DNA of 64,000 bases from a virus (IMGVR_UViG_3300029288_007050:1-64000); one strand, 5' to 3'; positions 13,036-41,655 are shown, numbered from the stretch's first letter. Translations and numbers: made by a program. The notes: a model not told the origin generated them from the letters alone.

Positions 13036-13608
13036 ATGCAACAACCGGAAGAAGAAAAGAATAAAAAAATATTAGAGGAGAATTTAAAACTAAGAATAGA
13101 AGATAAAAAGAAGGGCATCTTTTTTATCAATTCTATATTTGATGACACTTTATTAGAATTTTTGTTTTTTGACATAAAAAAGGCTATTGAAGATATAACG
13201 ATCAAAGAAATATTTATATATATCAATAGTAATGGAGGCGATACTACAACATTGTTTCCGCTGTATGATCTCATCAAAAAATCTGATAAAACTATAAACA
13301 CTATAGTTTTAGGAAAAGCATATAGTGCTGGAGCAATCATTTTATTATCTGGTACTAATCGATTTGCATATAAAAACTCGGAAATACTATTGCATGAAGT
13401 TTCTACTGAAATACCTAACTCAAAAAGTACTCAGATATTTGAATTCTCAAAAAATATTGTTAAAATAAATAAGACATTAAAGAAAATCGTGAAAGAAAAC
13501 ACGAAAATGACGAGTAAAGAAATAGAAACGTATTTCAATTCAAATAAAGACATTTTTATCGATTCTTCAAAAGCATTGAAATACGGTATAATTGATAAAA
13601 TAATATAA
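13036..13608 (+). CDS. ClpP-like serine protease
   Basis: YINSNGG, GKAYSAG (catalytic Ser), LLHE, ALKYGIIDKI. Confidence 0.88.
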   Translation: MQQPEEEKNKKILEENLKLRIEDKKKGIFFINSIFDDTLLEFLFFDIKKAIEDITIKEIFIYINSNGGDTTTLFPLYDLIKKSDKTINTIVLGKAYSAGAIILLSGTNRFAYKNSEILLHEVSTEIPNSKSTQIFEFSKNIVKINKTLKKIVKENTKMTSKEIETYFNSNKDIFIDSSKALKYGIIDKII

Positions 13609-16160: not shown

Positions 16161-17029
16161 TCTTAGGCGGTGGTATTTCTGGTCTGCTACAAGCATACTA
16201 TAAACCAAACTCTGTCATCATTTCTGACAAAATAGGCGGACAGTTTTCATCTAAATTCCAACTTGGCCCTAAATATCTTCATGTGGATGATTCGACGAAA
16301 CGTTTTTTCAAAGAAATAAATATCGAACCAGAGATTAAAAAAATTAAAATCGGTTTCTTTTTCGATGGAAAACTGCATTCAGAAAATACTGAAGAAAACA
16401 GAAAGAGATATTTTGAAAAAACAAGAGGGTCGTTGACTGAACCATATCATTCTGTAATGACTTCAAATAAAACTGAGTTTGATTCATTTGCTATTGCGCC
16501 TGATGAGATAATTGAAATATTGAAGACAAAAATAAAAAACGAAACAATCTTAGAAAAAGTAATAGGAGTTAATTTAAGATATAAAGAAGTATTGACAGAA
16601 TCTAGAAAAATCAAATATGACAATCTAATATCGACGATACCATTGAACGTGTTTTTATTTCTTAGCGGTAAACCAGATTTAGCAAAACAATATCAATCTT
16701 TTCCGACTACGTTCATTTTTTCTGAAAATTATAAAGATTGTCCATTCAGTGATTTTCAAGACTTTAACTATGTCTATGTTTCTGAACCACAACACGCGTT
16801 TCATAGAATAACTAAAGTACCAGACGGCATTGTTTTTGAATTCAAAGGAGACGGTATAAAAGCATTGAAAGGCGAAAAAGACAGAGTAGTAATGAAAGTA
16901 GGACAGTTAGTCGAAAACAATATGTTGATTGATTTCCAATATGTCAAGTTTTTTGGTAGATATGGTTGTTGGAAACATGGTATTAAAACTAACGAACTAT
17001 TAAAAGAAATATATGACACTAAAGTTTAA
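16133..17029 (+). CDS. FAD-dependent oxidoreductase, UDP-galactopyranose mutase/HemY-like
   Basis: IILGGGISGL, IGG, GPKYLH, LISTIPL, FGRYGCWKH. Confidence 0.75.
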   Translation: MQETGEKNIILGGGISGLLQAYYKPNSVIISDKIGGQFSSKFQLGPKYLHVDDSTKRFFKEINIEPEIKKIKIGFFFDGKLHSENTEENRKRYFEKTRGSLTEPYHSVMTSNKTEFDSFAIAPDEIIEILKTKIKNETILEKVIGVNLRYKEVLTESRKIKYDNLISTIPLNVFLFLSGKPDLAKQYQSFPTTFIFSENYKDCPFSDFQDFNYVYVSEPQHAFHRITKVPDGIVFEFKGDGIKALKGEKDRVVMKVGQLVENNMLIDFQYVKFFGRYGCWKHGIKTNELLKEIYDTKV

Positions 17030-17115
17030 AGAGTGGGATAAAAAACATAAAAGAGTGTGGCAGTTTGCAGACATTGACAGTGAACACGAGTGTTGCCTTA
17101 ATGGATATGAACTAT

Positions 17116-18048
17116 ATGAATCTTAAAGATATATTCAAAGAACAAAAAGACTTCCAGAAATACTTCTATAATCCAGATGACATTTCTGATGAAGACAAAA
17201 TAAAATTCACTAAAGAATACGTTCTTTCTATTCACAAAGAACTTGGAGAGATTCTAGATACTATACCCTGGAAACTTCACAGGAAAGAAGAAAAAGCTAA
17301 GTCTGAAAACAATACTATTGAAGAAATAATGGATTGTTTCAAGTTTCTTCTAAATCTTTGCATAATTTGGGGAATAGACGATGAAAAGTTTGTAAAAGAA
17401 TTCTTTAGAAAATCAATGGTTGTCAGGCAAAGATATAATCAAGAAATTCTTAAAGTAATAAGTAAAGATGACAAAGTGTGTGCGATCGACTTAGACGATA
17501 CTCTTGCTGATTCTTCTAAATACTTTATCGAAGTCTATCATAGAGAAAATTGCACCAGCACACCATATAAAAACAAAGCAGACTTAAAAAATCGTTTAGA
17601 TACTCTATCTTATGAAGAATTTAAGTCATGGTTTAGAGAATCTGGCGAAAAAGTCAATATACCCGTCATATCTGGAGCTAAAGAACTCTGTGATTATCTG
17701 AAGAAAAAAGGATATAAGATCGTTATCATTTCTGCTAGACCTTACGAAAAACACAGAAGAATCTTTTCAGATACTTTACAATGGTTGAATGACAACGAAA
17801 TTCAATATGATGCTGTCTATTTTGACAAAGACAAACACATCAAAATTTTGAAACAATTACCGAACTTATCATTCATTATAGAAGACAATCCAGAATATTC
17901 TGAACAGATTGCTTCTCAGGGTTTTAAAGTTTATCTTCTGCCGAATGAATGTGATAGTTCTTCTGAAGCAAAGATTAGAGAGACACTCAAAAATAAAGAA
18001 AACATTTCTCAGATTAATAATTTATTAGAAATAAAAAACTATGAATGA
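17116..18048 (+). CDS. fusion of all-alpha dNTP pyrophosphatase and HAD 5'-nucleotidase-like phosphatase
   Basis: ELGE..PWK..EEIMDCFKF; DLDDT, ISAR, IEDN. Confidence 0.8.
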   Translation: MNLKDIFKEQKDFQKYFYNPDDISDEDKIKFTKEYVLSIHKELGEILDTIPWKLHRKEEKAKSENNTIEEIMDCFKFLLNLCIIWGIDDEKFVKEFFRKSMVVRQRYNQEILKVISKDDKVCAIDLDDTLADSSKYFIEVYHRENCTSTPYKNKADLKNRLDTLSYEEFKSWFRESGEKVNIPVISGAKELCDYLKKKGYKIVIISARPYEKHRRIFSDTLQWLNDNEIQYDAVYFDKDKHIKILKQLPNLSFIIEDNPEYSEQIASQGFKVYLLPNECDSSSEAKIRETLKNKENISQINNLLEIKNYE

Positions 18049-18217
18049 AAAATGGAGTTGTCATATTTGCGGTAAAATGAGAGACGATGAAGACATCGAA
18101 GTTTTAACGTATTTACTGAAAGATTTACCAGGAGCTGAAAGAAACATAAGATATTGCAGAGATAATGAAGAGTGCAAGAAAAAAGCAGAAGAAAAAGCGA
18201 TAAGTCAAGAAGTATGA
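18041..18217 (+). CDS. small Zn-finger protein
   Basis: Hand translation MNEKWSCHICGKMR...YCRDNEECKK; ATGA overlap with next gene. Confidence 0.55.
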   Translation: MNEKWSCHICGKMRDDEDIEVLTYLLKDLPGAERNIRYCRDNEECKKKAEEKAISQEV

Positions 18218-18957
18218 ACGTTATTTCAGAACTCAAAGAAAAATATTCGAATGCAAAATGTTTAAAAACGATTAATGATTTCTTACAGAAAGATTTAACT
18301 TATCAAGACGTCGACGATCTTGAAAAAATAATTGATGAAGAATGGAAGACAAACTATAAGAACTTTGACAAATATTATAGTTACGAATACATATATATAG
18401 CTTTGAATTGTTTCAAAAAATATTCTAAAAATTCTGTATTCAAGACTTTCGAATATCTTGGTTCTGACAAAATAGAAAAAATTCTAGATTTAGGCGCTGG
18501 TATTGGTCTAACAACTAATCTATTGCAAGATCTATTTCCGAATTCTAAAGTATACTATTTAAACTTAGAAAAATCTTTACAGAATGATTTCTTTGAAAAG
18601 ATAAAGAATCCAAAAATAGAAATAATAAATAACGAAGAAGATCTTTATAATAACAAATTCGATATAATCTTTGCTTCAGAGTTATTCGAACATATAGAAA
18701 AACCGATAGAACTACTTAAGAAAACTATGAAGATATGTGACAAATACTTCGTAACATCAAATGCTTTTGGTCCAGAAGCTTATGGTCATTTTACTTCATA
18801 TTCAGTAGACGACATAGTTTTTGCACCGAGAGAAACTTCTAAAAAGTTTTTGAAAACAATCCGAGAAGAATTTGAAGAAATGAAAATAAAAACATGGAAT
18901 AGCAGACCAAGAATTTTTAAAAGAATAGAAGACACAAAACAATTGAAATTATTTTAA
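18214..18957 (+). CDS. class I SAM-dependent methyltransferase with C-terminal clamp-binding motif
   Basis: ILDLGAGIG, FDIIFASELFEH, ends QLKLF. Confidence 0.8.
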   Translation: MNVISELKEKYSNAKCLKTINDFLQKDLTYQDVDDLEKIIDEEWKTNYKNFDKYYSYEYIYIALNCFKKYSKNSVFKTFEYLGSDKIEKILDLGAGIGLTTNLLQDLFPNSKVYYLNLEKSLQNDFFEKIKNPKIEIINNEEDLYNNKFDIIFASELFEHIEKPIELLKKTMKICDKYFVTSNAFGPEAYGHFTSYSVDDIVFAPRETSKKFLKTIREEFEEMKIKTWNSRPRIFKRIEDTKQLKLF

Positions 18958-19502
18958 TGGATATACTACAAGAAAAACTAAATAAATGCACAGAATGTCC
19001 ATTTGAAGATTATGAAATAAACTGGTACGACGAAAAAACTGGAACCGGAAAACTTGCAGCGTATGTTTATCCAGAAAGCGATCATTCAGTGATGGTTGTC
19101 GGGCAGAATCCTTCTCATCGGAGATGGCCAGGCACTCATTCGATGGGAGGAAAACAAGGAGACATATTTCGAGAAATCTTCGGAAAAGATAGTTTAGTGT
19201 TTACAAACTTCATTCAAGTATCAACACCAAATAATAAAGTAGACCAGTTGACAGACGCACAGATCAATCATTGCATAAATCATTTACTAGACGAAATCGA
19301 ATATTTGAAACCAAAAGTAATTATCGTCTGTAGTTCTTTTGCTCGTTCTAAACTTGTTAAACTTGATAGATTGAATGACTTAGCTAAATGGAGTGCGAAC
19401 GTCTTCTTTGTAAAACATCCAGACTATTATTTAACTTATAATCGAGGTAACATTGAAGAATATTATTCAGAATTAAAATCTATAAAACAACTATGTTCAT
19501 AG
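18957..19502 (+). CDS. uracil-DNA glycosylase superfamily protein
   Basis: CTECP, VVGQNPS, FTN, EIEYLKPKVI, KHP. Confidence 0.75.
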   Translation: MDILQEKLNKCTECPFEDYEINWYDEKTGTGKLAAYVYPESDHSVMVVGQNPSHRRWPGTHSMGGKQGDIFREIFGKDSLVFTNFIQVSTPNNKVDQLTDAQINHCINHLLDEIEYLKPKVIIVCSSFARSKLVKLDRLNDLAKWSANVFFVKHPDYYLTYNRGNIEEYYSELKSIKQLCS

Positions 19503-19927
19503 TCTACGAAGGCACAGACTGTAGTGGGAAAACAACGACTAGAAAACTTGTCGAGAAACAACGTGATGGCAAAGACGTTGTAATAGATAGATTCATTGGT
19601 TCTAACATTGTTTACGGTCTTATCTTCAAAAGATACACTGAAGAAAAATTTAAAATTCTCTATGTAGATGATTATAGATTCGCTTCGATGTTTAATCCAG
19701 TTCTTATATATCTATACGCACCAGTTAAAGAAATTGTTAAGAGAATGAAAAAAGACGGCCACGAAGAGATTGATAAAGAGATCTTAACAAAGACTCTCAA
19801 AGAATATAATAAATATTTTGACAGATGCGGATACGAAAACAAAATAAAAATAAATACTAGTCGGTATGATCAGAAAGACGTAGTTAAAAAAATAATTAAT
19901 TTTTTAAAGCATGTTGAAAATAAATAA
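19493..19927 (+). CDS. dNMP (thymidylate-like) kinase
   Basis: YEGTDCSGKTT, IDRF..S..VYG. Confidence 0.85.
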   Translation: MFIVYEGTDCSGKTTTRKLVEKQRDGKDVVIDRFIGSNIVYGLIFKRYTEEKFKILYVDDYRFASMFNPVLIYLYAPVKEIVKRMKKDGHEEIDKEILTKTLKEYNKYFDRCGYENKIKINTSRYDQKDVVKKIINFLKHVENK

Positions 19928-20438
19928 TGTCGTTATAGTCAATCATATTTTTGACATCGAAAAATGTTTCAGACAGATGTGTGCGACAGTCAATGATACA
20001 TATGAATTGAATAATGTTGTTATTACATACGAAAAATATCCAAGACCAGCTAAAAAACTTCCATCAAAGACAGATGAAGATGAAAGGAAGTGGATTTTAG
20101 AAGAAATAAATACTACGATCAACAAGATAAAGAAAGACCGATATACTAGAAAAGCAATACTTTATAATCTTCACAAATCTGATCTTGCGCATAATTGTCT
20201 TAGTCTATTTCATCTATACTATAGAGAACACAAACTTCATTTAAACGTTTACGTCCGTAGCATGAATTTTGCTGAAAACTTTGAGCATGATATGTACACT
20301 TTCGATTTAATTTTAAACAAAGCATGTAAAAAACTTGAATTAGAAAAAGGTCAAATCGTAGTTTTCATCATGAGTCTTCATAAGTTTAGAGTATTATCTG
20401 CGTATGAAAAACGAGGAAAAAATAAAAATAATAATTAA
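19911..20438 (+). CDS. short thymidylate-synthase (ThyA)-fold enzyme, probable dCMP-modifying
   Basis: TRKAI, catalytic Cys in NCLSLFH, YVRSMN...HD, MSLH. Confidence 0.7.
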   Translation: MLKINNVVIVNHIFDIEKCFRQMCATVNDTYELNNVVITYEKYPRPAKKLPSKTDEDERKWILEEINTTINKIKKDRYTRKAILYNLHKSDLAHNCLSLFHLYYREHKLHLNVYVRSMNFAENFEHDMYTFDLILNKACKKLELEKGQIVVFIMSLHKFRVLSAYEKRGKNKNNN

Positions 20439-20447
20439 TAAAAACAT

Positions 20448-21287
20448 ATGAAAATAGCAATCACCGGAAGCAAAGGCATAATAGGTTCAAATTTAGTTCC
20501 TTATCTAGAATCAAAAGGACATGAAGTAGTTCAAATATTATCAGATATTCGAGATTATGCAGCATTAAGAGAAGAATTCTCTATTCATTCTAATATTGAC
20601 TGGCTAGTTCATTTAGCTGCTATCGTTAGCACAATATCATGTGATCTAGCTGGAAGACACACATTCGACGTCAATGTCAAAGGCACTTATAATGTTGCTG
20701 ATCTTTGCAAAGAAAACAAGATAAAATTCTGTTATTTCTCAACGACAGCAATATACAAACCTGGACAAAATCCAATACTTGAAGAATCGATCAAAGAACC
20801 CCAAACTCTTTATGGATACACGAAATATCTTGGAGAACTGACTGCTCAAAATGTATTCAAAGACAAACCAGAAGATCTTTTACTATTAAGACCATGTTTT
20901 GCTTTTGGTGGAAACAATGACAGATCGATAGGATCTTTGGTTATTAAATCTGGTATACATAATGAACCTATAAACGTTCAACTCGATCCAGAAAAACTTA
21001 AAGACTATATGCACGTAGATAATCTATCAGAAGCTGTCGAAATGTTATTGATAAGAAACATTACTGGAGAATACAATATTAGTTATGGTGAACCGATTAA
21101 ATTCGGAGACTTGGTCAAAAAGGTCGAAGCAATGGGACTTAAACCTTTTATTTATTACAGACCAGAACTTGACTATATGGGTGACCATGTCGTCAATAAC
21201 ACAAAACTGAAATCCGTAATAGATTGGAAACCTTCTATATCAGTCGAAGAAGGATTAAAAAAGGTTTTCGAAAAATTAACTAAATAA
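20448..21287 (+). CDS. NAD-dependent sugar-nucleotide epimerase/dehydratase (extended SDR)
   Basis: ITGSKGIIG, HLAA, YGYTK (YxxxK), DYMHVD. Confidence 0.9.
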   Translation: MKIAITGSKGIIGSNLVPYLESKGHEVVQILSDIRDYAALREEFSIHSNIDWLVHLAAIVSTISCDLAGRHTFDVNVKGTYNVADLCKENKIKFCYFSTTAIYKPGQNPILEESIKEPQTLYGYTKYLGELTAQNVFKDKPEDLLLLRPCFAFGGNNDRSIGSLVIKSGIHNEPINVQLDPEKLKDYMHVDNLSEAVEMLLIRNITGEYNISYGEPIKFGDLVKKVEAMGLKPFIYYRPELDYMGDHVVNNTKLKSVIDWKPSISVEEGLKKVFEKLTK

Positions 21288-21291
21288 TTAC

Positions 21292-22329
21292 ATGACAAAC
21301 GAAGAAAAAAACGAGTTTAGAAGACTCTTAGGCACTTTGCCTGAACAAGCAACTGAAATTCCAGAAGAAGACTTCGATAAATATGCAAAAGATAAATCAC
21401 TCTGGGAAGAGAATGAATTCGGTATTAAAGTCGGGCCGTTTCAATTTTTCGAAGGTGTCAGAGGGATCAGTGTTCAGACTATAGACTATCCTAAAAATCC
21501 ATACAGGTTATTATATGAATTTGCTGTTGCTACGTGGGGAGATGAAAAATATGACGAGATGTGGCCAAAGACGAAACCAGAACATAGATTCATAGTTGTT
21601 AAAAATGTTCTAGCAAATAAAGCTCTTCCACTCGGAAATGAAGCAATTCAATTTAGTTTCATAATTAGAGGCCCAAGTCGAGCGTCATTCGATCAGCATG
21701 CTAGACAAAGAGTTGGAGCAACATTTGCTAGTCAAGGTGTAAGAGACAATTCTAGATTATTATCTGGTTGCAGAGTACCAAACGAAATTTGGAGAAACAA
21801 AGAAAAAAGAGACGAATTCATTTCTTCTGCTTTGTGGGCTAAAAAAGCATATTACCGAATGTTAAAATCTGGAGAAGGCAATTCATTCCAAGCTGCTAGA
21901 GCTATGATGTTAATGTCTTGGACACATAACTATAAATATTCTACAAATTATATGGCTCTGAAGGGCTATATGGCTCAAAGATTAGTAGCTTCTGAACAAG
22001 AAGACACCGTCGCTGTTGCTATCTCTATCTGGAATGAGATCAACAATATGTTCCCGATGTTAGCAAATAGTCTTAGACCAAAATGTGACTGGGCTGGTAA
22101 ATGTGTATGTCACCAGGGTGATGGCGGCGAACTTTTCGGCGCTTTGTTCAAAGGATGCGGCAGATTTCCAGAGTCAGAAGGAAAATATGCTACTTTTAAC
22201 TGGGCATGCACAGATTATCTAACTTTAGACAAACAATTAGGCATTCATCTGCCTTCTCCTACTGAATGGAGAGAATTCAATTCTCTAGATGACCTCGAAG
22301 AAAAAGATAGAATGTTGTTTGAGGAATAA
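21292..22329 (+). CDS. divergent flavin-dependent thymidylate synthase (ThyX-like)
   Basis: FSFIIRGPSRASFDQHARQR..., AARAMM, QR...EQ. Confidence 0.7.
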   Translation: MTNEEKNEFRRLLGTLPEQATEIPEEDFDKYAKDKSLWEENEFGIKVGPFQFFEGVRGISVQTIDYPKNPYRLLYEFAVATWGDEKYDEMWPKTKPEHRFIVVKNVLANKALPLGNEAIQFSFIIRGPSRASFDQHARQRVGATFASQGVRDNSRLLSGCRVPNEIWRNKEKRDEFISSALWAKKAYYRMLKSGEGNSFQAARAMMLMSWTHNYKYSTNYMALKGYMAQRLVASEQEDTVAVAISIWNEINNMFPMLANSLRPKCDWAGKCVCHQGDGGELFGALFKGCGRFPESEGKYATFNWACTDYLTLDKQLGIHLPSPTEWREFNSLDDLEEKDRMLFEE

Positions 22330-22389
22330 TACATAAATCATTAAAAAAGCTCTTAGAAAGCGTTCTAGAGCACTAAGAAACAATTAGAA

Positions 22390-25152
22390 ATGGTATCTGA
22401 ACTAAAACAAAAAGGCATTCGGCCAGTGATTGCATGGGACGATGGTAAGACTATATATTTCGTCTATAGAGATAAAGACAAACAAAAACGGATATTTGAA
22501 ATAAATGACTTTCAGTGGTATTTTTGTATTCACGCAAAACAATATGAAAGCGAAGAAGGAAGATTGATACTCAAAGAAGCAGTTAAAAAAGCAATGACAA
22601 AGTGGTTTCCAAAACTAGACGAAGTTGGAAACAAGATGTATCGTGAAGATGGCAGATTGCTTTTCGATAAAATTAGTCTACCGAACCCAATAAAGAAAGT
22701 AGAAAAGAAAGGAGACTTTGTTAAAGTTTACTGTGATCGTTATGCAGACGAAACGAAGTCTTTTCTAAGACGTCTACAAGATACAGAAATTGAGACTAGA
22801 GAAGCAGACTTAAACTTAACAAAGAGATACATGATCGACAACATGGTTGATATCGAAGAAGATTTATCGATATTATTTTTTGACATAGAAACGAACGATA
22901 CAAATCCTGGAATTGAAATAGGTCGAGATGAAATTCTTTCTTGGGCCGGTTGTGACAATGTCGGAAATGTTTTCTTCGAAAAGAGTGATGATCTTGAAAC
23001 TGGCGAATCAGAATTAATTCTGAATATGTTAAAACTTTTCAAAAAATATGACTTAATAGTTGGTTGGAATAGTGAACAGTTCGATATAGCATATATCAAA
23101 AACCGCATCGATAAACTTAATATTACTGGTGAAGAACTTGGAGAAGAAAAAATTAACGTAAATAAGACAAACTTCTGGAAAAAGATTATACACGTTGACT
23201 TGATGAAGAGATTGATTAAACTATTTGGTCCTATGATGACTGTAGTCAATCTTACTGGTTTTAGTCTAAATGAAGTTGCTAAAGTATTCATAGGCGAACA
23301 GAAAATTGAAAGACCAGAAAAAGTTATACATTTATATCGAAAAAATCCTGAAAAATTAGAAGAATATAATAAAAAAGATGTCTTGTTAGTTAAACAAATA
23401 AACGACAAATTAAGAACACTCCCGTTAATGATAAAAGAATGTTTTTGGACGGGTACTTTTATGGATAGATTCTACATAGGAGAACTTTTAGACAATTACA
23501 TTTTGAGAGAAGCTAATCTTCAAGATTTTCACTTAAAGACAAGACCGAAATATGAACAAAATTCTGAATCAATCAGAATCAGAGGCGGATATGTGATGGT
23601 GCCTGATATTGGTTTATATGATAATGTAAGAACTCTAGATTTCAAATCTATGTACCCGTCTATAATGGTTGGGTGGAACATTGGTCAAGAATCTTTAGTC
23701 GAGGGTAAGATATCAGACATTGCTCAAAAAGACTTTGATTTATGGATAAAAGATCGAAAAATAGAAGAAGTGCCTTTTATAGAATGGTACGATTTTCTTA
23801 AAAAAGAAAACAAAAAACTTAATCCAAAAAATAAATATCTCCAAACGGCAAACAATCAATTTTTTGCTAGAGAAAGACCAAGTATTATTTCTGGTTTAGT
23901 AAAAAAACTTTTACAAGAAAGAAAAGCATACAAAAAACAACAGATTGATTCTGTATATAACTCGATCGAATATAAAAATGCTCAAGCTTCACAAGAAGCT
24001 GTAAAAGAAATGAGCAACTCTATGTATGGTATTACTGCAGATAAACAAGCAAGATTCTTTGATCCGCGTATAGCAGAAGCAATAACGATGACTGGTCAAT
24101 TTATGAATCGGACGACAATGGCAATTCTGACTAAAATGGGATACCAAGTTATATATGGTGATACAGATTCTATTTTTACTCTCGTCGATAGTGATGAAGA
24201 GATGAAAAGAGTCATCGACGAGTTAAACAAAAAACTTTCAGCTCATCTTACTAAAACATACGGTTTTACGGACAATATCATTTACATTGAATATGAAAAG
24301 AAATTCAGAAAATTTATTATGTTAGATAAAAAAAGATATGTAGGACATCTCATAGAAGTCGATGGCAAACCAGTAGACTCAGTTCTTTCTAAAGGAACAG
24401 AAAACGTCAGAAAAAACACGATCGACTTTACAAAACAAAAAGTTAACGAATGCTTAGATTTGTTAGTTAAACAAGATAAAGGTCTAGAGTATATGAAAGA
24501 ATGGGTGCAAAAAATAAAAGACTACGTCTTATCAGACAAAATGAGAGAAGACATGATGGCTAAAGAAATTCCAGGAATGCCTCTAGCAATAACAATGAAA
24601 TTGTCTAAACCGACATCTGCATATAAAACAGATACTCCGCATGTTAAATTAGCTAAACAAATGGTTGCAGACAAAGAAATATTAGAAACACACGAAGGCA
24701 AACACGTCTGGGGTCAAAAAATTGAGTATTATATAAAAGATGCCCACAGAGGTAATATGAAAAGTGGTTTGAGAGATTCAGAAAGAAGTCATTCTACGAA
24801 ATCACAAAATGCTGCATTAATAAGAGACTATGCTGGAGACCATGATGCAAAATATTATTGGGACATTCAAGTATTTGCTCCATTAGGCAGAATTCTTAAT
24901 ACAGTTTGGCCAGAGACAAAAGAAGATAAAATCTGGACAAACTACACTGTAGCAGAAGAAGAAAAACAGAAAAGATTAGAAGAAAAAGAAAAACTCCGAA
25001 AAGAAAAACAAATAAAGAAAGAGCAATTGAAATTTGAAAGAATTAGAATCAAAGAAGAAAAACAAAAAGAGAAAGAGACTAAAAAGAAACTAAAAGAAAC
25101 GAAAAAAATAAATAGAAAAACAACTAAAAGTAAACAATTAAAATTATTTTAA
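22390..25152 (+). CDS. family B DNA polymerase
   Basis: Exo FDIET/GWNSEQFD; DFKSMYPS; KEMSNSMYG; YGDTDS; KKRY; ends QLKLF. Confidence 0.95.
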   Translation: MVSELKQKGIRPVIAWDDGKTIYFVYRDKDKQKRIFEINDFQWYFCIHAKQYESEEGRLILKEAVKKAMTKWFPKLDEVGNKMYREDGRLLFDKISLPNPIKKVEKKGDFVKVYCDRYADETKSFLRRLQDTEIETREADLNLTKRYMIDNMVDIEEDLSILFFDIETNDTNPGIEIGRDEILSWAGCDNVGNVFFEKSDDLETGESELILNMLKLFKKYDLIVGWNSEQFDIAYIKNRIDKLNITGEELGEEKINVNKTNFWKKIIHVDLMKRLIKLFGPMMTVVNLTGFSLNEVAKVFIGEQKIERPEKVIHLYRKNPEKLEEYNKKDVLLVKQINDKLRTLPLMIKECFWTGTFMDRFYIGELLDNYILREANLQDFHLKTRPKYEQNSESIRIRGGYVMVPDIGLYDNVRTLDFKSMYPSIMVGWNIGQESLVEGKISDIAQKDFDLWIKDRKIEEVPFIEWYDFLKKENKKLNPKNKYLQTANNQFFARERPSIISGLVKKLLQERKAYKKQQIDSVYNSIEYKNAQASQEAVKEMSNSMYGITADKQARFFDPRIAEAITMTGQFMNRTTMAILTKMGYQVIYGDTDSIFTLVDSDEEMKRVIDELNKKLSAHLTKTYGFTDNIIYIEYEKKFRKFIMLDKKRYVGHLIEVDGKPVDSVLSKGTENVRKNTIDFTKQKVNECLDLLVKQDKGLEYMKEWVQKIKDYVLSDKMREDMMAKEIPGMPLAITMKLSKPTSAYKTDTPHVKLAKQMVADKEILETHEGKHVWGQKIEYYIKDAHRGNMKSGLRDSERSHSTKSQNAALIRDYAGDHDAKYYWDIQVFAPLGRILNTVWPETKEDKIWTNYTVAEEEKQKRLEEKEKLRKEKQIKKEQLKFERIRIKEEKQKEKETKKKLKETKKINRKTTKSKQLKLF

Positions 25153-28079: not shown

Positions 28080-28371
28080 ATTCACTCAAGAGACTAGAGA
28101 TTTATTCTTTTGGAACAAAAAATGTTGGTGGTGCGGACAAAATCATTGGAATTGTCTCCATCATATATTAGGACGTGTTTCAAATAGTCCACTGAACGCA
28201 GCACCTATCGCAAACTTTGGTTGTCATATCGGTAATGGAAAACTTTCACAATTTGAAGTAAGAAAAAAGATGTTAAAAAAGACGTTAGAATATCTATTAG
28301 AAAATGGATACGTTTTGACAGAAAAAGATAAAGAGTTTAAGAAGAAATATGAAAAATACTACAAAAGCTAA
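28066..28371 (+). CDS. HNH-like Zn-binding small nuclease
   Basis: CWWC...LHHILGR...N...CH. Confidence 0.6.
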   Translation: MLKNEFTQETRDLFFWNKKCWWCGQNHWNCLHHILGRVSNSPLNAAPIANFGCHIGNGKLSQFEVRKKMLKKTLEYLLENGYVLTEKDKEFKKKYEKYYKS

Positions 28372-29065
28372 GATAAGTATAAATACGAGAATGAAAACAT
28401 ACTATGAAAATCAGACTAAGTTTTTTCTTTTGAGAAGAACTCCTGTCATCATACGTTTAGATGGAAAATGTTTTCATTCTTTGACTAAAAACTGTGAAAA
28501 ACCATTCGATGAGAATTTCAGAAAAGCGATGGTGTCAACGTCATTGAAACTTTGTGAAAGCATACAAAACGTAAAATTAGCATATTCAGCAAGTGACGAA
28601 ATTTCATTATTATTAGTTGATTATAATAATTTAGACACTTGCCAGTGGTTCGATGGAGAAATACAGAAGATAGTTTCTATTTCCGCTTCAATTGCTGGAG
28701 TCGAATTCACAAAAATCTTTGGAAAAGAAGGACACTTTGATAGTAGAACATTTAACATACCGAGAGAAGAAGTATGCAATTATTTTATTGCAAGACAACA
28801 AGATGCTATCAGAAATAGTATTCAAGCAGTCGCACAATCACAATTCTCTCACAAGACTTTGCACAAGCTAAATACTAAACAACTTCGAGAAAAGCTTTTA
28901 AAAGAAAAACAAGTTGACTGGAATGATATTCCAGAATACTATAAAAAGGGCTTTGCTTTATATTATAAAACAAATGACGAAGACGTCAAACTTTCGAATT
29001 GGATTATTGATATTCAAATACCTAAGTTCAATGAAGAACGAGAATACGTAGAAAGGTTCATATAA
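28349..29065 (+). CDS. Thg1-like protein (tRNA-His guanylyltransferase / 3'-5' polymerase)
   Basis: IRLDGKCFH, SDEIS, WFDG..QK, FDSR, RQQDAIRNS. Confidence 0.92.
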   Translation: MKNTTKAKISINTRMKTYYENQTKFFLLRRTPVIIRLDGKCFHSLTKNCEKPFDENFRKAMVSTSLKLCESIQNVKLAYSASDEISLLLVDYNNLDTCQWFDGEIQKIVSISASIAGVEFTKIFGKEGHFDSRTFNIPREEVCNYFIARQQDAIRNSIQAVAQSQFSHKTLHKLNTKQLREKLLKEKQVDWNDIPEYYKKGFALYYKTNDEDVKLSNWIIDIQIPKFNEEREYVERFI

Positions 29066-29072
29066 TAGGGTA

Positions 29073-29101
29073 TTTACAAATATATCAGAATATGGTATAA
29101 T
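29073..29101 (+). promoter_or_regulatory. sigma70-type promoter
   Basis: TTTACA-N17-TATAAT. Confidence 0.85.
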
Positions 29102-29107
29102 AGGAAT

Positions 29108-29317
29108 ATGGATATAGAAAAAATAAAAACATACATAGAACAAGGCATCAAACAAGAAGTTGAAAAAGAATTCGATGCCCTGAAAGACAAACTCATTAAA
29201 GATCTCGAAATGAAGAAAAATGAAATTTGCGCTGGTATTCTATTAAACATCATGAAAACCATAGATATACAGAATCTTAACGACAGAGTCATTTTTACGA
29301 TTAGAGAAATCAAATGA
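29108..29317 (+). CDS. hypothetical protein (near-leaderless)
   Basis: ATG 7 nt after the -10 box. Confidence 0.6.
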   Translation: MDIEKIKTYIEQGIKQEVEKEFDALKDKLIKDLEMKKNEICAGILLNIMKTIDIQNLNDRVIFTIREIK

Positions 29318-29435
29318 ACAGAAAGATGTTATTCGGTTTAATAGTTTTCGTCGCGGGTATGATTTTATCTAATACTGGTCATCCGATTTTAGGTCTTTCT
29401 GGTGGTCTAATTGGTATATATTTTGTATTCGTCAA

Positions 29436-29864
29436 ATGAACACTTTTCTTCCATTTACTGATTTCGCTGAATCTGCAGCAGTTCTAGACAATAAACGACT
29501 CGGTAAACAAAGAGTAGAGACGTATCAAATTTTGAGAGTTCTTCTTAATATCACAGAATCGAAAGCTTGGCGAAATCATCCAGCAGTAAAAATGTGGAAA
29601 AATCATGAAGGTTGTCTTATAGAATATGGAATAGCAATATGCACAGAATGGAGAAAAAGAGGTTTCAAAGACACATGTCTAGATAAGATTAATGCATTGC
29701 GCAAATACGTCATGTCAGAAAGTTATGTTAAACCAGAGTGGCTCGGGAATGAAAATCTTCATCTAGCATACAAATCAAATTTGTTAAGAAAAGATTTTAA
29801 TTATTATAAACAATATAATTGGCCGTGCGATAACAATCTAAGTTATATCTGGCCTGTAAAATAA
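29436..29864 (+). CDS. pyrimidine-dimer DNA glycosylase/endonuclease V-like protein
   Basis: MNTFLP...LDNKRLGKQRVE, WRNHPAVKMW, SNLLRKD. Confidence 0.85.
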   Translation: MNTFLPFTDFAESAAVLDNKRLGKQRVETYQILRVLLNITESKAWRNHPAVKMWKNHEGCLIEYGIAICTEWRKRGFKDTCLDKINALRKYVMSESYVKPEWLGNENLHLAYKSNLLRKDFNYYKQYNWPCDNNLSYIWPVK

Positions 29865-29865
29865 T

Positions 29866-30951
29866 ATGAGAAAATTAGCAACAATACAACAAATCGAAGA
29901 CGTTCAACCTATCGAAAACGCTGATTCGATCGAAAAAGTAAAAATCAAGGAATGGTGGGTTGTTTCGAAGAAAGATACTTTTAAAAAAGGTGATCTTTGC
30001 GTATATTTCGAAATAGACTCATTACTACCTTCTGATAATCCAGAATTTGAATTTCTTTCAAAAGGGACAAAAGAAAAAACGATGATGATCGAAGGAAAAG
30101 AATATAAAGGATACAGACTAAAAACTATAAAACTAAGAGGTCAAGTATCTCAAGGTCTAGCATTACCGATTGATATTGCTATTAAAAAAATCAATTCTTT
30201 ATCTCAGGAAGAGGCAGTCAAATACAACATATATCCAGATGATTTTACAGCTGGAGTAGAAGTTTCAGATCTTCTCAACGTAGTCAAATATGAACCACCT
30301 GTTCCTGCTAATCTTTCTGGTGTAATGAAAGGTTTCTTTCCAGGATTCATTCCAAGAACAGATGAAGAAAGAATTCAGAATTGTGCAGATATTTTAGAAA
30401 AACATAAAGGAGAAACGTTTTATATCACAGAAAAATTAGATGGTTCGTCTGTGACATACTACAAAAGAAACGGAGAATTTGGTGTATGCGGAAGAAATTG
30501 GGAACTGAAAGAAACTGAAGAAAACACTATGTGGAGAGTCGCAAAAGAAATGAATCTTATCGAAAAATTAGAAGACGGATTTGCTATTCAGGGAGAAATA
30601 ATCGGAGAAGGCATACAGAAAAATCCGCTTAAAATAAAAGGTCAACGTATATACTTCTTTAACGTCTATGATATAAAGAAAGGTCGATATCTAGATTTCA
30701 AAGATTTTGTTGTCTTCTGCCAGAGAATGGGAATCAATACAGTTCCGATCGTCGACTCAGCTTATACGTTGTCTAGCACCGCTGAAGAATTGATAGAAAT
30801 GGCTAATGGCAAAAGTCTACTATGCGAAACAGCAAATAGAGAAGGTTTAGTATTTAGACCAATAGTAGAAGGAAGAGACGAAATCAATGGTTCTATTTCT
30901 AGACTTTCTTTCAAAGTAGTCTCGAATGATTATTTATTAAAAGAAGAATAA
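29866..30951 (+). CDS. ATP-dependent RNA ligase (DRB0094/Rnl5-type with N-terminal OB domain)
   Basis: RKLATI, YFEIDS, LRGQVSQGL, TEKLDGSS, QGE, EGLV, SFK. Confidence 0.9.
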   Translation: MRKLATIQQIEDVQPIENADSIEKVKIKEWWVVSKKDTFKKGDLCVYFEIDSLLPSDNPEFEFLSKGTKEKTMMIEGKEYKGYRLKTIKLRGQVSQGLALPIDIAIKKINSLSQEEAVKYNIYPDDFTAGVEVSDLLNVVKYEPPVPANLSGVMKGFFPGFIPRTDEERIQNCADILEKHKGETFYITEKLDGSSVTYYKRNGEFGVCGRNWELKETEENTMWRVAKEMNLIEKLEDGFAIQGEIIGEGIQKNPLKIKGQRIYFFNVYDIKKGRYLDFKDFVVFCQRMGINTVPIVDSAYTLSSTAEELIEMANGKSLLCETANREGLVFRPIVEGRDEINGSISRLSFKVVSNDYLLKEE

Positions 30952-30955
30952 AAAC

Positions 30956-31519
30956 ATGAAAACTTCTACAATCGTCATAATTAGTTTGTTAGCAGTGTTA
31001 TTATTAATAACACTTATAACGATAGGATCGTATAATGGTTTTGTAAAAAAGAATCAAAACGTAGAGACAGCATGGTCACAAGTAGAAAATCAATATCAAA
31101 GAAGATTTGATCTGATACCCAATCTTGTTAATTCTGTGAAAGGAATGATGAAACAAGAACAAGAAGTATTTGAATCTATAGCAGAAGCTAGAACACAGTA
31201 TGCTGGAGCTTCGAACATAAATTCAAAAATCGATGCTGCTCAAAACATAGAAACTAGTTTGGGTAGACTATTGGCTATAATGGAAAACTATCCTGAACTT
31301 AAATCTAGTCAAAACGTAACAGGCTTGATGGACGAACTATCTGGCACAGAAAATAGAATATCTGTAGAAAGAAATAGATATAATGAAAATGTCAGAACAT
31401 ACAACGTGTCTGTGAAGACGTTTCCCTCGAACATATTCGCAAACATATTTGGTTTCGAAACAATGAATTTCTTCGAATCTACTGAAAACGCTAACATAGC
31501 GCCTGAAGTAAATATATGA
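30956..31519 (+). CDS. lemA: LemA family protein
   Basis: YN, AWSQVENQYQRRFDLIPNLV, ENYPELK, ENRI..ER.RYN. Confidence 0.93.
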   Translation: MKTSTIVIISLLAVLLLITLITIGSYNGFVKKNQNVETAWSQVENQYQRRFDLIPNLVNSVKGMMKQEQEVFESIAEARTQYAGASNINSKIDAAQNIETSLGRLLAIMENYPELKSSQNVTGLMDELSGTENRISVERNRYNENVRTYNVSVKTFPSNIFANIFGFETMNFFESTENANIAPEVNI

Positions 31520-32235
31520 ACGTCTTTAAATCAACAATACTGATAATCTCTTCGATTCTGTTTTTATCGCCAGCATTAGTATATTCTCTAGATGTGCCAG
31601 AATATCATAATTGGGTTAATGATTATGCTAATGTTATCGATGACGACGTCGAATCTGTCTTGAATAACACAATCGCTGAATTTGAAGAAAAAACTTCGTC
31701 AGAAATAACTGTCGTAACAATAAATTCTCTTGATGGAGAAAATCTAGAAGACTTTTCAATGAAAATAGCAGACAATTGGAAGGTAGGCAAAGAAGACAAA
31801 GACAATGGTATCATGTTATTGTTTGCCATAGCAGAAAAAAGAGTTAGATTAGAAGTAGGTTATGGTCTAGAAGGAGTAATCAATGATGCTAAAGCTGGTA
31901 GGATTTTAGACGACTGTGTCGTCGAGTTCAGAGACGAGGGCGATTACACTAATGCTGCGAAAAATGGTGTCGAGTGCATCATTCAAGAGATAGGTACTGA
32001 AGAATGGACAGAAGAACAATCCGGTTCTGGATCTGCTATTCTATTGTTCATTATCATTGGTTTCTTTGGATTATTTTTCATTTGTGCAATTTTTTCTAGC
32101 TCTAGTGGTGGAAGTATTGGTTCTGGTTTTATTGGTGGCGGTATCGGTTTAGGAAGTAGCGGGGGAAGCAGTGGAGGCAGTAGTTTTGGTGGTTTCGGTG
32201 GTGGTAGTTTTGGTGGGGGAGGCGCTTCAAGATAA
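31516..32235 (+). CDS. TPM-domain (YgcG-like) membrane protein
   Basis: VNDYA, WKVG..DKDNG, RLEVGYGLEG; Gly-rich tail FGGGSFGGGGAS. Confidence 0.92.
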   Translation: MNVFKSTILIISSILFLSPALVYSLDVPEYHNWVNDYANVIDDDVESVLNNTIAEFEEKTSSEITVVTINSLDGENLEDFSMKIADNWKVGKEDKDNGIMLLFAIAEKRVRLEVGYGLEGVINDAKAGRILDDCVVEFRDEGDYTNAAKNGVECIIQEIGTEEWTEEQSGSGSAILLFIIIGFFGLFFICAIFSSSSGGSIGSGFIGGGIGLGSSGGSSGGSSFGGFGGGSFGGGGASR

Positions 32236-32255
32236 TTCGAAATGTATTTATTTCT

Positions 32256-32576
32256 ATGAAAAAATATCAAACTATAATTGGATGTCTGTTAATTGCTATT
32301 GCTCTCTATTTTGGTCTATCTAGTATTGATATTGATATAGAAGTCAAAAATACTTCGTCTCCTCAGAGTATTCAAGAAAAACTTATACAAGAAAAATTTC
32401 AAGCATATCAAGACTGGGGTTATTATAATGGTCTTGCGATGCCTAAAAGAATTTTATCTGAAAACGAATGGTTTAAGAAAACAGGAGACAACAATTACGA
32501 TCCGAATCTAACGTGCGAACAGCTCATAGACGAAATGTACGACATAGGATATAAAAACGCAAATCGACCAGATTAA
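32256..32576 (+). CDS. hypothetical membrane-anchored protein
   Basis: N-terminal hydrophobic helix. Confidence 0.6.
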   Translation: MKKYQTIIGCLLIAIALYFGLSSIDIDIEVKNTSSPQSIQEKLIQEKFQAYQDWGYYNGLAMPKRILSENEWFKKTGDNNYDPNLTCEQLIDEMYDIGYKNANRPD

Positions 32577-32594
32577 AAAATCTAAAAACAAAAA

Positions 32595-33809
32595 ATGAAA
32601 AAAGTAATATCAACAGAAAAAATACCGATCAAATTATGGTTAGACGATATTGAAGAAGGCGCTTTGCAACAAGCTAGAAATCTTGCTAATTTGCCTTTCG
32701 GTTTCAAATGGATTTCTATAATGCCTGATTCTCATCAGGGTTTCGGTATGCCGATAGGTGGTGTTATGGCTACAAAAGGAATAGTAGTACCAAACGCTGT
32801 CGGTGTTGATATTGGGTGTGGTATGTGCGCAGTCAAAACGTCTTTGACAGAAATCGACCAAGAAAAACTTAAGAAAATAATGGGAAGAATCCGGAAAGAA
32901 ATTCCAGTCGGTTTCAGTCATCACAAATCAAAACAGAATGAAGATCTAATGCCAAAATTTCCAAGTGAATCTAAACCAGACTGGGACGTTAATTTAATGC
33001 CAGTATGTGTAAGTGAATACGAAAACGCTTTAAAACAGATTGGAACTCTTGGAGGAGGAAATCATTTCATTGAAATTCAAAAAGGAAGTGATGGTCACAT
33101 CTGGTTAATGATACATAGCGGTTCTAGAAACTTTGGTTTAAAGATTGCTAAACACTACAACGATTTAGCAATAGAATTAAACAAAAAATGGCACACTCAA
33201 GTTCCGCATGAATGGAAATTGGCATTCTTGCCGATGGATTCGAAAGAAGGATACACCTATTTGAGAGAAATGCAATACGCTGTTGATTTTGCTTTAGCTA
33301 ATAGAAAACTGATGATGGATAGAATACAAAACATCGTAAACGACGTCTGCTGGTTAAATTTAGACAACGTTCTTCCTGACAAATCACCTTTAGTCATAGA
33401 CGAAATGATAAATATTGCTCATAATTATGCTAAGATGGAAAACCATTTCGGAGAAAACGTCTTAGTCCATAGAAAAGGAGCTACGTTAGCTACAGAAAAA
33501 ACAATAGGTATAATTCCAGGTTCGATGGGTACTTCAAGTTATATCGTCCAAGGTTTGGGAAATCCAGATTCGTTTAATTCTTGTTCACACGGAGCTGGTA
33601 GAAAAATGAGTAGAAAAAAAGCTATCTCTGATCTTAATTTAGAAGAAGAACAGAAAAAAATGACAGGTATTTTGGGAGCACCAAGAAATAAAGACGAGTT
33701 AGAAGAAGCACCAGGTGCTTATAAAGATATAGACGTCGTCATGGAAAATCAGAAAGATCTTGTTAAGATTTTAGTTGAGCTTAGACCATTAGCTGTTATC
33801 AAAGGTTAG
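32595..33809 (+). CDS. rtcB: RtcB RNA 2',3'-cyclic phosphate/5'-OH ligase
   Basis: MPDSHQG, VGVDIGCG, GTLGGGNHFIE, HSGSR, HN, HRKGA, PGSMG, SHGAGR. Confidence 0.95.
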   Translation: MKKVISTEKIPIKLWLDDIEEGALQQARNLANLPFGFKWISIMPDSHQGFGMPIGGVMATKGIVVPNAVGVDIGCGMCAVKTSLTEIDQEKLKKIMGRIRKEIPVGFSHHKSKQNEDLMPKFPSESKPDWDVNLMPVCVSEYENALKQIGTLGGGNHFIEIQKGSDGHIWLMIHSGSRNFGLKIAKHYNDLAIELNKKWHTQVPHEWKLAFLPMDSKEGYTYLREMQYAVDFALANRKLMMDRIQNIVNDVCWLNLDNVLPDKSPLVIDEMINIAHNYAKMENHFGENVLVHRKGATLATEKTIGIIPGSMGTSSYIVQGLGNPDSFNSCSHGAGRKMSRKKAISDLNLEEEQKKMTGILGAPRNKDELEEAPGAYKDIDVVMENQKDLVKILVELRPLAVIKG

Positions 33810-40194: not shown

Positions 40195-41655
40195 ATGACA
40201 AAATTTCGAACAAAAGTATCAACAAAGACAGAAAATTTAGCGGGAGGAGAAGCATTTAAAGAATCAGATAAACTCGAACTGATTTCTTTACTTTTGACAT
40301 CTTTCGTTAAAGATAAGTTCTATGAATCTGCTGGAGAACAGCTAGTTAGATTAGAAGACTTAGTGAATAGAATCAAAGACAAGAAATTCATTGCAAAAGC
40401 TGCTATATATGCTAGAAAAGAATTCGGAATGAGAAGTATCACTCATGCTCTGTTAGCTGAATTATCTAAAATAGTTAAGGGCGAAAAATGGTTAAAGATT
40501 GCTATCCAAAAAGCATCATTCCGACCAGACGACATGATGGAAATGCTCGGATATTACCTTTCTAAATATCAAAAACCGATACCGAATTCTATGAAAAAAG
40601 GTCTTTCTCTTGCTTTAAAAAACTTCGATGCATATCAACTTGGTAAATATCGAGGTGAAAGAAGCGGATTAAGACTTGTAGACTTGTTCAACATCGTCCA
40701 TCCAAAACCATCTGATCCAGAAACAGAAGAACTATATAAAAAAATTATCGAAGACAAACTTCGTTCTTCTGATACTTGGGAAAAGAATATTTCAGACACT
40801 GGCCAGCAAGTTAAAAACATCGCTGACGCTGAACAAAGAGAAGAAAAACAGAAAGAACTTAAGTCTGATGCTTGGAGAAAACTTGTCTTAGAAAAGAAAC
40901 TTGGATATTTCGCATTGTTAAGAAATCTTAGAAATCTTTTAGAACAAGCTGATGATGAGACAATCGAAACTGCTTGCAAAACTTTAGTAGACAAAGAACT
41001 AATCAAAAAATCTCTTGTTCTTCCATTCAGATTTAATACTGCTGTGAAACAAATAGAAAGAACGTCGAACAAAAACACTAGATTAGTAGTAGATGCACTT
41101 CATAACGCTCTAGAACTGTCTCTAAGCAACGTTCCGAAATTTGATGGGAAAACATTAATCGTATTAGACGAAAGCGGTTCTATGAGAGGAAATCCGGAAG
41201 AAATAGGTTCTCTATTTGCTGCAGTCTTGTATAAATCGAACAATGCTGATTTGATGACGTTCTCTGAAGAAGCTAGATACAGAAATATACACTCTGGAGA
41301 TAGTGTTCTTACAATCGCAAAACAATTACAATCTGATTTCGTTGGAGGCGGAACTGATTTTCACAGTATTTTCAATTCTGCAAACCAGGTATATAATAGA
41401 ATCGTAATACTTTCTGATATGCAAGGATGGATCGGATACGAAAATCCGACTAAAGCGTTTGCAGAGTATAAAACAAGAGTTAATGCAAATCCACACGTAT
41501 ATTCTTTTGACTTGAATGGATATGGAACATTACAATTTCCAGAAAAACAAGTATATTGCATTACTGGATTTTCTGATAAAGTATTTGACATTATGAAAGT
41601 ACTCGAGCAAGATAGAAACGAATTGATCAATAAAATCGAAAAAATTGAACTTTGA
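40195..41655 (+). CDS. Ro60/Rsr TROVE-domain RNA-binding protein with vWA domain
   Basis: NLAGGEAF, FY, YARKEFGMRS, FDAYQLGKY, HPKP, TWE, ALLRNLRN, PFRF, MIDAS DESGSM, GGTD, SDMQ. Confidence 0.92.
   Translation: MTKFRTKVSTKTENLAGGEAFKESDKLELISLLLTSFVKDKFYESAGEQLVRLEDLVNRIKDKKFIAKAAIYARKEFGMRSITHALLAELSKIVKGEKWLKIAIQKASFRPDDMMEMLGYYLSKYQKPIPNSMKKGLSLALKNFDAYQLGKYRGERSGLRLVDLFNIVHPKPSDPETEELYKKIIEDKLRSSDTWEKNISDTGQQVKNIADAEQREEKQKELKSDAWRKLVLEKKLGYFALLRNLRNLLEQADDETIETACKTLVDKELIKKSLVLPFRFNTAVKQIERTSNKNTRLVVDALHNALELSLSNVPKFDGKTLIVLDESGSMRGNPEEIGSLFAAVLYKSNNADLMTFSEEARYRNIHSGDSVLTIAKQLQSDFVGGGTDFHSIFNSANQVYNRIVILSDMQGWIGYENPTKAFAEYKTRVNANPHVYSFDLNGYGTLQFPEKQVYCITGFSDKVFDIMKVLEQDRNELINKIEKIEL

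Follow-up and report, generated by a model that had tools for sequence, protein, structure and literature searches.

In bacteria, short clamp-binding peptides recruit polymerases and repair enzymes, and in eukaryotes the methyltransferase DNMT1 is recruited to replication forks through the interaction of its PIP box with PCNA. Among phages, the T4 polymerase gp43 ends in LDFLF, and a structure of the RB69 peptide with the gp45 clamp exists. Here we consider a 64,000-nucleotide stretch of DNA from an uncultured phage (IMGVR_UViG_3300029288_007050:1-64000, “the window”) in which a family-B DNA polymerase (PolB; 22390-25152, plus strand) and a class I S-adenosylmethionine (SAM) methyltransferase (MTase; 18214-18957, plus strand) end in the same pentapeptide, QLKLF. 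We think it rather probable that both tails are beta-type clamp-binding motifs, and that the MTase is a clamp-tethered enzyme that tailors hypermodified phage DNA. The window covers the opening 64 kb of an IMG/VR virus record (G000) of 129,156 bp. This record carries the label “provirus”, is about 83% complete, and was itself cut from a 137,703-bp metagenome contig; some 8.5 kb of that contig lie outside the searched sequence.

For the polymerase, the natural comparison is with Escherichia coli Pol II, likewise a PolB, whose beta-clamp motif QLGLF is found at the C-terminus (PMC11139829). The phage enzyme resembles it as a family-B polymerase with a consensus pentapeptide at the extreme C-terminus and with Pol II as its best NCBIfam match; it differs in being phage-encoded, in being only 22-25% identical to cultured-phage PolBs, and in its Lys/Glu-rich spacer of about 60 aa. 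For the MTase, the closest analogy is DNMT1 with PCNA, where a methyltransferase also shares a class of clamp-docking peptide with the replicative polymerase. Unlike DNMT1, the window enzyme has a motif of the bacterial beta type, is not a C5 or N6 DNA MTase, and probably acts on a hypermodified base or sugar. A further parallel lies in the gp43/gp45 pair of the T4 family: in phages with a gp45-type clamp, MTases of the family described here carry LxxFF tails like those of their own gp43, whereas the window phage has a beta-type motif and no gp45 was found in it.

The MTase family adjoins genes for a TET-associated glycosyltransferase (TAGT) and ParB_N, of the kind found in the phage TET/5mYOX-glycosyltransferase clusters; in these, TAGT, ParB_N and C5-methylase/TET functions make post-replicative cytosine hypermodifications (PMC8256090; bioRxiv 10.1101/2023.12.21.572611). 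The window phage differs from them in having no TAGT, TET or ParB_N. Neither of those two papers mentions a clamp-binding tail on hypermodification-cluster enzymes, and a 2024 review mentions no MTase among the partners of the beta clamp (PMC11139829). Recruitment of the host beta clamp by a phage protein is known from phage Mu, whose MuC uses a clamp-binding motif for the purpose; unlike the window proteins, which are a polymerase and a putative modification enzyme, MuC activates transcription (PMC12867686).

If the MTase family is clamp-tethered, hypermodification of phage DNA would be physically coupled to replication, which would account for new phage DNA being already shielded from host nucleases by the time it becomes exposed. 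An MTase tail matching that of the resident polymerase would then serve as a signature for DNA-acting enzymes among “small-molecule-like” MTases, and the apparent dependence of the phage PolB on the host clamp and clamp loader would be a possible determinant of host range.

A shared C-terminal pentapeptide

Both open reading frames (ORFs) read through to the identical ending reported in the initial annotation, EDTKQLKLF in the MTase and TKSKQLKLF in PolB. The K-Q-L-K-L-F codons of the MTase lie at 18937-18954 (plus strand), with a stop at 18955-18957 that overlaps the ATG of the next gene; the Q-L-K-L-F codons of PolB lie at 25135-25149 (plus strand), followed by the stop at 25150-25152. When the window and then the full record (129,156 bp) were scanned in six frames, no other plausible ORF of at least 40 aa ended in Q-[LIVMF]-x-[LIVMF]-[FLYWIM]. 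From the residue composition of the final 12 positions in 171 predicted proteins, a shared six-residue ending in any pair of them has a probability of about 0.0025, and 0.015 proteins would be expected to end in Q-phi-x-[LM]-[FL]; in unrelated phage loci, 0/896 ORFs have the latter ending.

Dalrymple 2001 is reportedly the source for the clamp-binding motif class Q-phi-x-[L/M]-[F/L]. Both tails fit this beta-clamp ligand consensus exactly and fall in its strongest, tightest-binding class, QLxLF (PMC11139829), as expected of the DnaN-binding type of peptide that had been proposed for them.

The 21-nt DNA string behind the shared tail is found only at the ends of the MTase and PolB genes. Among relatives, the synonymous codons used for the motif vary (CAA/CAG, TTA/TTG/CTA, AAA/AAG/AAT); in one of them (L003) PolB ends in KQLNLF and the MTase in RQLKLF, again with synonymous codon differences. 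Because the codons differ between relatives while the peptide stays the same, the tail is conserved at the level of protein. A DNA-level signal was considered as the cause of the shared 21-mer and rejected, given its two occurrences and the synonymous variation in relatives.

In this phage group a clamp tail of the beta type also occurs on YopX, the third protein family to carry one. The YopX of L003 (L003:43-435) has a 13-residue extension ending in a canonical QLSLF, and that of another relative, L176, is without the extension. A remnant of a YopX gene persists at window positions 17013-17114, between a 298-aa flavoprotein-like gene and a dUTPase/HAD gene; its 34 codons match the N-terminal part of the complete L003 YopX at 88% identity.

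The polymerase tail among homologues

PolB is a 920-aa family-B polymerase with a 3'-5' exonuclease domain (Pfam DNA_pol_B, 197 bits, with RNase_H_2 and exo domains). Its family-B motifs are DIET at 165, KEMSNSMYG at 539 and DTDS at 591, and its NCBIfam match, to a DNA polymerase II-like family, scores 217 bits, below the equivalog cut-off. The C-terminal motif follows a low-complexity linker of about 60 aa, 66% Lys/Glu/Arg, between the polymerase thumb and the tail (24952-25131, plus strand), a placement consistent with an exposed terminus.

There are 143 metagenomic homologues, and the tail was counted in the best 120 of these, down to 34% identity. The strict pattern QL.L[FLIM] occurs within the last 10 residues of 40 of the 120, and Qxx(x)L[FL] in 32 more, giving 72/120 in total; several of the remaining homologues have a hexapeptide form (QLKLAL, QLTLNL, QLPLGL). 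In internal ten-residue segments of the same proteins, the strict pattern is found 2 times in 9,389. The stretch from the conserved YYW motif to the C-terminus ranges from 11 to 133 aa with the terminal motif kept throughout, whether the chain ends just past the thumb or runs on through a spacer that is rich in Lys/Glu and can reach about 100 residues. Conservation of the tail among homologues was one of the checks proposed in the initial annotation, and on these counts the PolB tail is conserved; the C-terminal motif, judged by its distribution, is an old one, probably clamp-binding and of the known Pol II-like kind.

The spacer itself (window 24952-25131; homologues P0013-P0132) resembles a single-alpha-helix (ER/K) domain. 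Related IMG/VR loci sought with PolB alone were not found, and an alignment-based search of IMG/VR loci for PolB gave mostly distant T4-like polymerases, which were used as background only.

The methyltransferase and its phage-only family

The MTase is a protein of 247 aa whose ATG start agrees with its homologues. It matches Pfam Methyltransf_12 (34.1 bits, cut-off 30), Methyltransf_23 (31.7, cut-off 27) and Methyltransf_11 (29.1, cut-off 21.2), and its motif I, LDLGAGIG, is of the GxGxG Rossmann kind. An AlphaFold2 (AF2) model (predicted local distance difference test, pLDDT, 89; predicted TM-score 0.88) shows alternating strands and helices, with a tail that is disordered past the last strand and residues 243-247 below a pLDDT of 50, so that this terminus too is predicted to be exposed. 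The motifs (D/N/S)PP(Y/F/W), PC(Q/H) and ENV are absent from its sequence, and no N6 or C5 DNA-methylase family appears among its Pfam, NCBIfam and PHROG matches; the earlier description of a small-molecule type of enzyme lacking DPPY and PC motifs thus agrees with a class I SAM fold and an empty motif search. Its three closest relatives, at 86-90% identity, end in RRLKLF, RQLKLF and KQLKLFQ. At least four other class I MTases of the record, in a glycan cluster at 74-83 kb, are without a clamp tail.

A family profile spanning positions 1-239 retrieves 1,976 representative homologues, of which 595 reach E <=1e-10, and the Atlas neighbor clusters of the family are 98-100% viral. The window enzyme carries the AYGHF and WNxRPxxW motifs of the family (invariant Y190-G191-H192 and W228-N229-x-R231-P232). 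In 66/80 IMG/VR loci the immediate neighbor of the family MTase is a same-strand TAGT gene; some members are fused to TAGT, to ParB_N or, in one member, to a dTMP-kinase-like domain, and the loci sometimes also hold C5 DNA methylase and uracil-DNA glycosylase (UDG)-polymerase genes.

On a tree of MTase cores from which the tails had been removed, L.LF tails (KQLKLF, KQLQLF, KQLSLSLF, SLKLF and TLNLF) must have arisen in the family no fewer than five times, and a looser set needs eleven origins; such repeated, independent gains of equivalent tails argue for function, not against it. In two of the lineages with such tails (L178 and L181/L182) the gene order is a ParB-like gene, an MTase with an L.LF tail, a small ORF, TAGT and a divergent DnaN of about 340 aa, with the tail carried by the MTase only and with a clamp-loader-like AAA+ gene and a UDG-PolA near the clamp genes. 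The profile of this divergent DnaN matches the PDB beta clamps 2awa and 2avt over its full length (E 1e-8 and 1e-7); an AF2 model of it, made with two sequences, reached a pLDDT of 50 and was not used, and the identification as a clamp rests on the PDB profile match.

Tail type and clamp type

Ten of 24 IMG/VR records searched encode a gp45-type clamp, and in all ten the family MTase bears an extended C-terminal tail, ending in TLESFF, GLEKFF, SSLYRF or SCFLTT. PolB is readable in eight of these records and ends in STLESFFG, NSLDSFFL, TLEDFFS or SLDDFF. The MTase tail resembles that of its own PolB in 5/8: one record holds a near-identical pair (QSTLESFFG in PolB, GNTLESFF in the MTase), and in four further records S/T-L-x-x-F is common to the two proteins (NSLDSFFL versus SSGLEKFF, for example). 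Gp45-like endings occur on 14 ORFs in the 80 loci, 9 of which are family MTases. Phages of the beta type are matched as well, with KQLKLF on both proteins in the window and KQLNLF (PolB) with RQLKLF (MTase) in L003. Read across these phages, the family MTase repeatedly mimics what is taken to be the docking peptide of the resident polymerase; a tail that follows the polymerase's tail in this way is behavior expected of a clamp client.

Other proteins in gp45-type phages end in SLEDFFS, TLESFFQD or SLTKFL (L185:253-1212, L244:3485-4303, L246:3-668 and L235:15945-16589), and these may be further clamp clients.

Clamp genes and the host

The absence of a clamp gene, noted at first for the window, holds for the whole 129-kb record. 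A six-frame Pfam search of this record, about 83% complete, gave no DnaN, PCNA or gp45 match, and a DnaN profile built from four sequences (two from Patescibacteria and two divergent ones from phages) found none in the record with all filters off. Candidate Patescibacteria DnaN sequences are L171:772-1872 (plus strand) and L170:1489-2592 (minus strand). Pfam scans of about 70 proteins revealed no clamp-loader-type AAA+ protein, and two partial relatives likewise lack one. Pfam PF02768 fails to recognize the divergent phage DnaNs, and PF02767 gives a weak match to just one of them; Pfam-negative results for clamps in phages are weak evidence. Divergent DnaN-like genes stand beside MTase/TAGT modules at L178:3159-4178, L181:11912-12937, L209:10977-11999, L215:3725-4819 and L262:10760-11863.

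The phage carries a RecA of bacterial type (window 42592-43581, Pfam 390 bits), a DnaB-primase fusion and ClpP, which makes the host a bacterium. Across 185,579 species genomes, the RecAs nearest to it come from metagenome-assembled genomes (MAGs) of Patescibacteria (candidate phyla radiation, CPR), at 56-62% identity, against 55-56% for Campylobacter; no PolB relative was found in the MAGs that hold the closest RecAs. PolB homologues are labelled as Patescibacteria or Pacearchaeota MAGs. The phage DNA occurs in landfill and groundwater metagenomes, a habitat that is indicative only, being based on run shares. RecA similarity and MAG labels together hint that the host may be a Patescibacteria/CPR bacterium. 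An archaeal host, with the tails as PIP boxes for PCNA, was rejected: the motif is without the xxFF part, and the phage has a bacterial RecA, DnaB-primase and ClpP.

Proposed mechanism and alternative explanations

In the mechanism that we favor, the tail of PolB, at the end of its Lys/Glu-rich spacer, would hold a beta clamp for processive replication. That clamp would most likely be the host DnaN, which is the simplest reading because no clamp or clamp loader was found in the phage record. The MTase would have copied the docking peptide of the polymerase, would ride the same clamp, and would methylate a target on newly made phage DNA at the replication fork; rather than a plain base, the target would probably be a chemical group carried by a modified or hypermodified base or by its sugar. 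A DNA-tailoring role best explains the MTase because the enzyme is of a small-molecule type, its family travels with a DNA glycosyltransferase, and it has a docking tail. The role on modified DNA suggested in the initial annotation gains support from the adjacency and fusion of family members to TAGT, from the ParB_N fusion, and from MTase tails that match those of the resident polymerase. More tentatively, with confidence falling somewhat short of even, the whole family can be pictured as clamp-riding tailoring enzymes that methylate glycosylated or hypermodified bases on nascent DNA (chemistry that would be undescribed), the peptide being swapped repeatedly to match the clamp of the resident polymerase, whether that is a beta clamp (QLxLF) of host or phage origin or a gp45 (LxxFF); here the MTase and PolB would both use the host DnaN, in a phage possibly of Patescibacteria.

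Several observations weigh against this proposal. TAGT, Tet_JBP and ParB_N were not found in this genome: no TAGT adjoins the window MTase, the best Pfam match to TAGT in the 129-kb record is 12.5 bits, below the cut-off, and our own TAGT hidden Markov model gives E >0.03 (a TAGT is present in the PolB relative L175). Foldseek matches of the MTase are all to class I MTases with a TM below 0.5 and of generic small-molecule, tRNA and protein types. The linker from its last strand to the motif is only about 6 residues. In three of the eight gp45-type records with a readable PolB, the MTase tail, SCFLTT, is unlike that of the polymerase. The expectation that the tail is conserved in homologues, sound for the PolB clade and for MTase relatives at 86% identity or more, fails for MTase relatives at 47-61% identity, where the tail is absent and chains stop a few residues past WNxRPxxF/W; one close relative has a Q to R change (RRLKLF). 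Finally, the neighbors of the window MTase are nucleotide-pool enzymes, and a pool-level substrate is possible.

The source of the clamp is the point at which an alternative carries most weight. A phage-encoded clamp, with a gene that lies in the unrecovered portion of the genome or has diverged past recognition, is an unlikely but serious contender: the record is about 83% complete, 8.5 kb of the 137,703-bp parent contig lie outside the searched sequence so that a phage clamp may be missing, and genes for divergent DnaN-like clamps, of a sort that PF02768 misses, are present in related TAGT modules. Set against this are 129 kb without a Pfam clamp match or a match to a profile that includes divergent phage DnaNs, the lack of a clamp-loader AAA+ protein in about 70 scanned proteins, two partial relatives that lack one as well, and a motif that is the cellular high-affinity consensus. 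One may also grant that the MTase tail binds a clamp and suppose that the enzyme acts on something other than DNA, through methylation of a replisome protein, channelling of a modified nucleotide to the polymerase, or blocking of host clamp clients. Weak sequence and fold resemblance to METTL9/DREV protein-histidine MTases and to small-molecule MTases would suit such a role, as would the dUTPase/HAD, dTMP-kinase-like, thymidylate-synthase-like and ThyX neighbors and the one member fused to a dTMP-kinase-like domain; we regard it as improbable nonetheless, the dominant partners of the family being TAGT (66/80 loci, plus the fusion) and ParB_N, which belong to post-replicative DNA hypermodification clusters (PMC8256090).

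Function in the MTase tail could be denied altogether if it were a recent copy of the PolB 3' end, arising for example by recombination of AT-rich gene ends, with the PolB tail alone functional. The restriction of the exact tail to relatives at 86% identity or more is, taken alone, weak evidence for function; together with the Q to R relative and the 21-nt stretches that are identical at 20/21 positions in this genome, it is what such a copy would leave. Yet identity at the DNA level is expected from identical peptides given preferred codons, the peptide is kept across relatives despite synonymous differences, there are at least five independent origins in the family, and tail type tracks clamp type in other phages, all of which make a functionless copy quite improbable. 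C-terminal hydrophobic tags exist in bacteria, and the phage has a ClpP homologue (13036-13608, with an orthologous gene in L001), so the shared C-terminus might be imagined as a degradation or localization tag, for example for a ClpP-type protease of the phage; with a motif that matches the clamp consensus and not known ClpX tags, that is conserved on the polymerases of a large clade, and that occurs in operons with clamps, we consider this highly improbable.

Gene neighborhood and other features of the record

Both QLKLF-tailed genes belong to a plus-strand module of replication and nucleotide metabolism. The module begins with a fusion of dUTPase_2 (MazG-like) and HAD phosphatase (17116-18048, plus strand, from Pfam with the start taken from relatives); a TTG start is listed at 17065 but is probably a misassignment, the gene more likely beginning near 17116. 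A 58-aa zinc-ribbon ORF and the MTase follow, and then a family-4 UDG-like protein (18957-19502, plus strand; Pfam UDG 42.9 bits, NCBIfam UDG_fam4), whose start overlaps the MTase stop. Between these and PolB lie a dTMP-kinase-like P-loop protein, a short thymidylate-synthase-like protein, an NAD-dependent sugar epimerase/dehydratase and ThyX (19493-22329, plus strand). Downstream of PolB come a dCMP deaminase, a cytidylyltransferase-like protein, a phosphoribosyltransferase and a chaperonin.

The UDG is a separate gene in the window; in related phages family-4 UDGs are fused to three types of polymerase, namely a PHP-DnaE type of 1,407 aa (L004:10726-14949), PolB (P0077) and the exonuclease half of PolA (L181:12934-14163). 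Inteins or homing-endonuclease domains break PolB, RtcB and ThyX in several relatives (P0022, P0027, P0091 and P0113; L176:9953-12070; L004:14978-16423).

Elsewhere in the record, a glycan-building cluster occupies G000 74382-83015 on the minus strand (L006:10382-19015) and comprises three GT2 glycosyltransferases, one of them MTase-fused, a UDP-GlcNAc 2-epimerase, a rhamnosyltransferase-like protein, a GDP-mannose-dehydratase-like short-chain dehydrogenase/reductase and three more class I MTases. An RNA-repair set includes a Thg1-like tRNA-His guanylyltransferase, RNA ligases of the PHA02142/Rnl and T4 Rnl1 types, RtcB, Ro60/TROVE and 11 tRNA genes, with the repair genes at window positions 28349-33809 and 40195-41655 and at G000 126985-128055.

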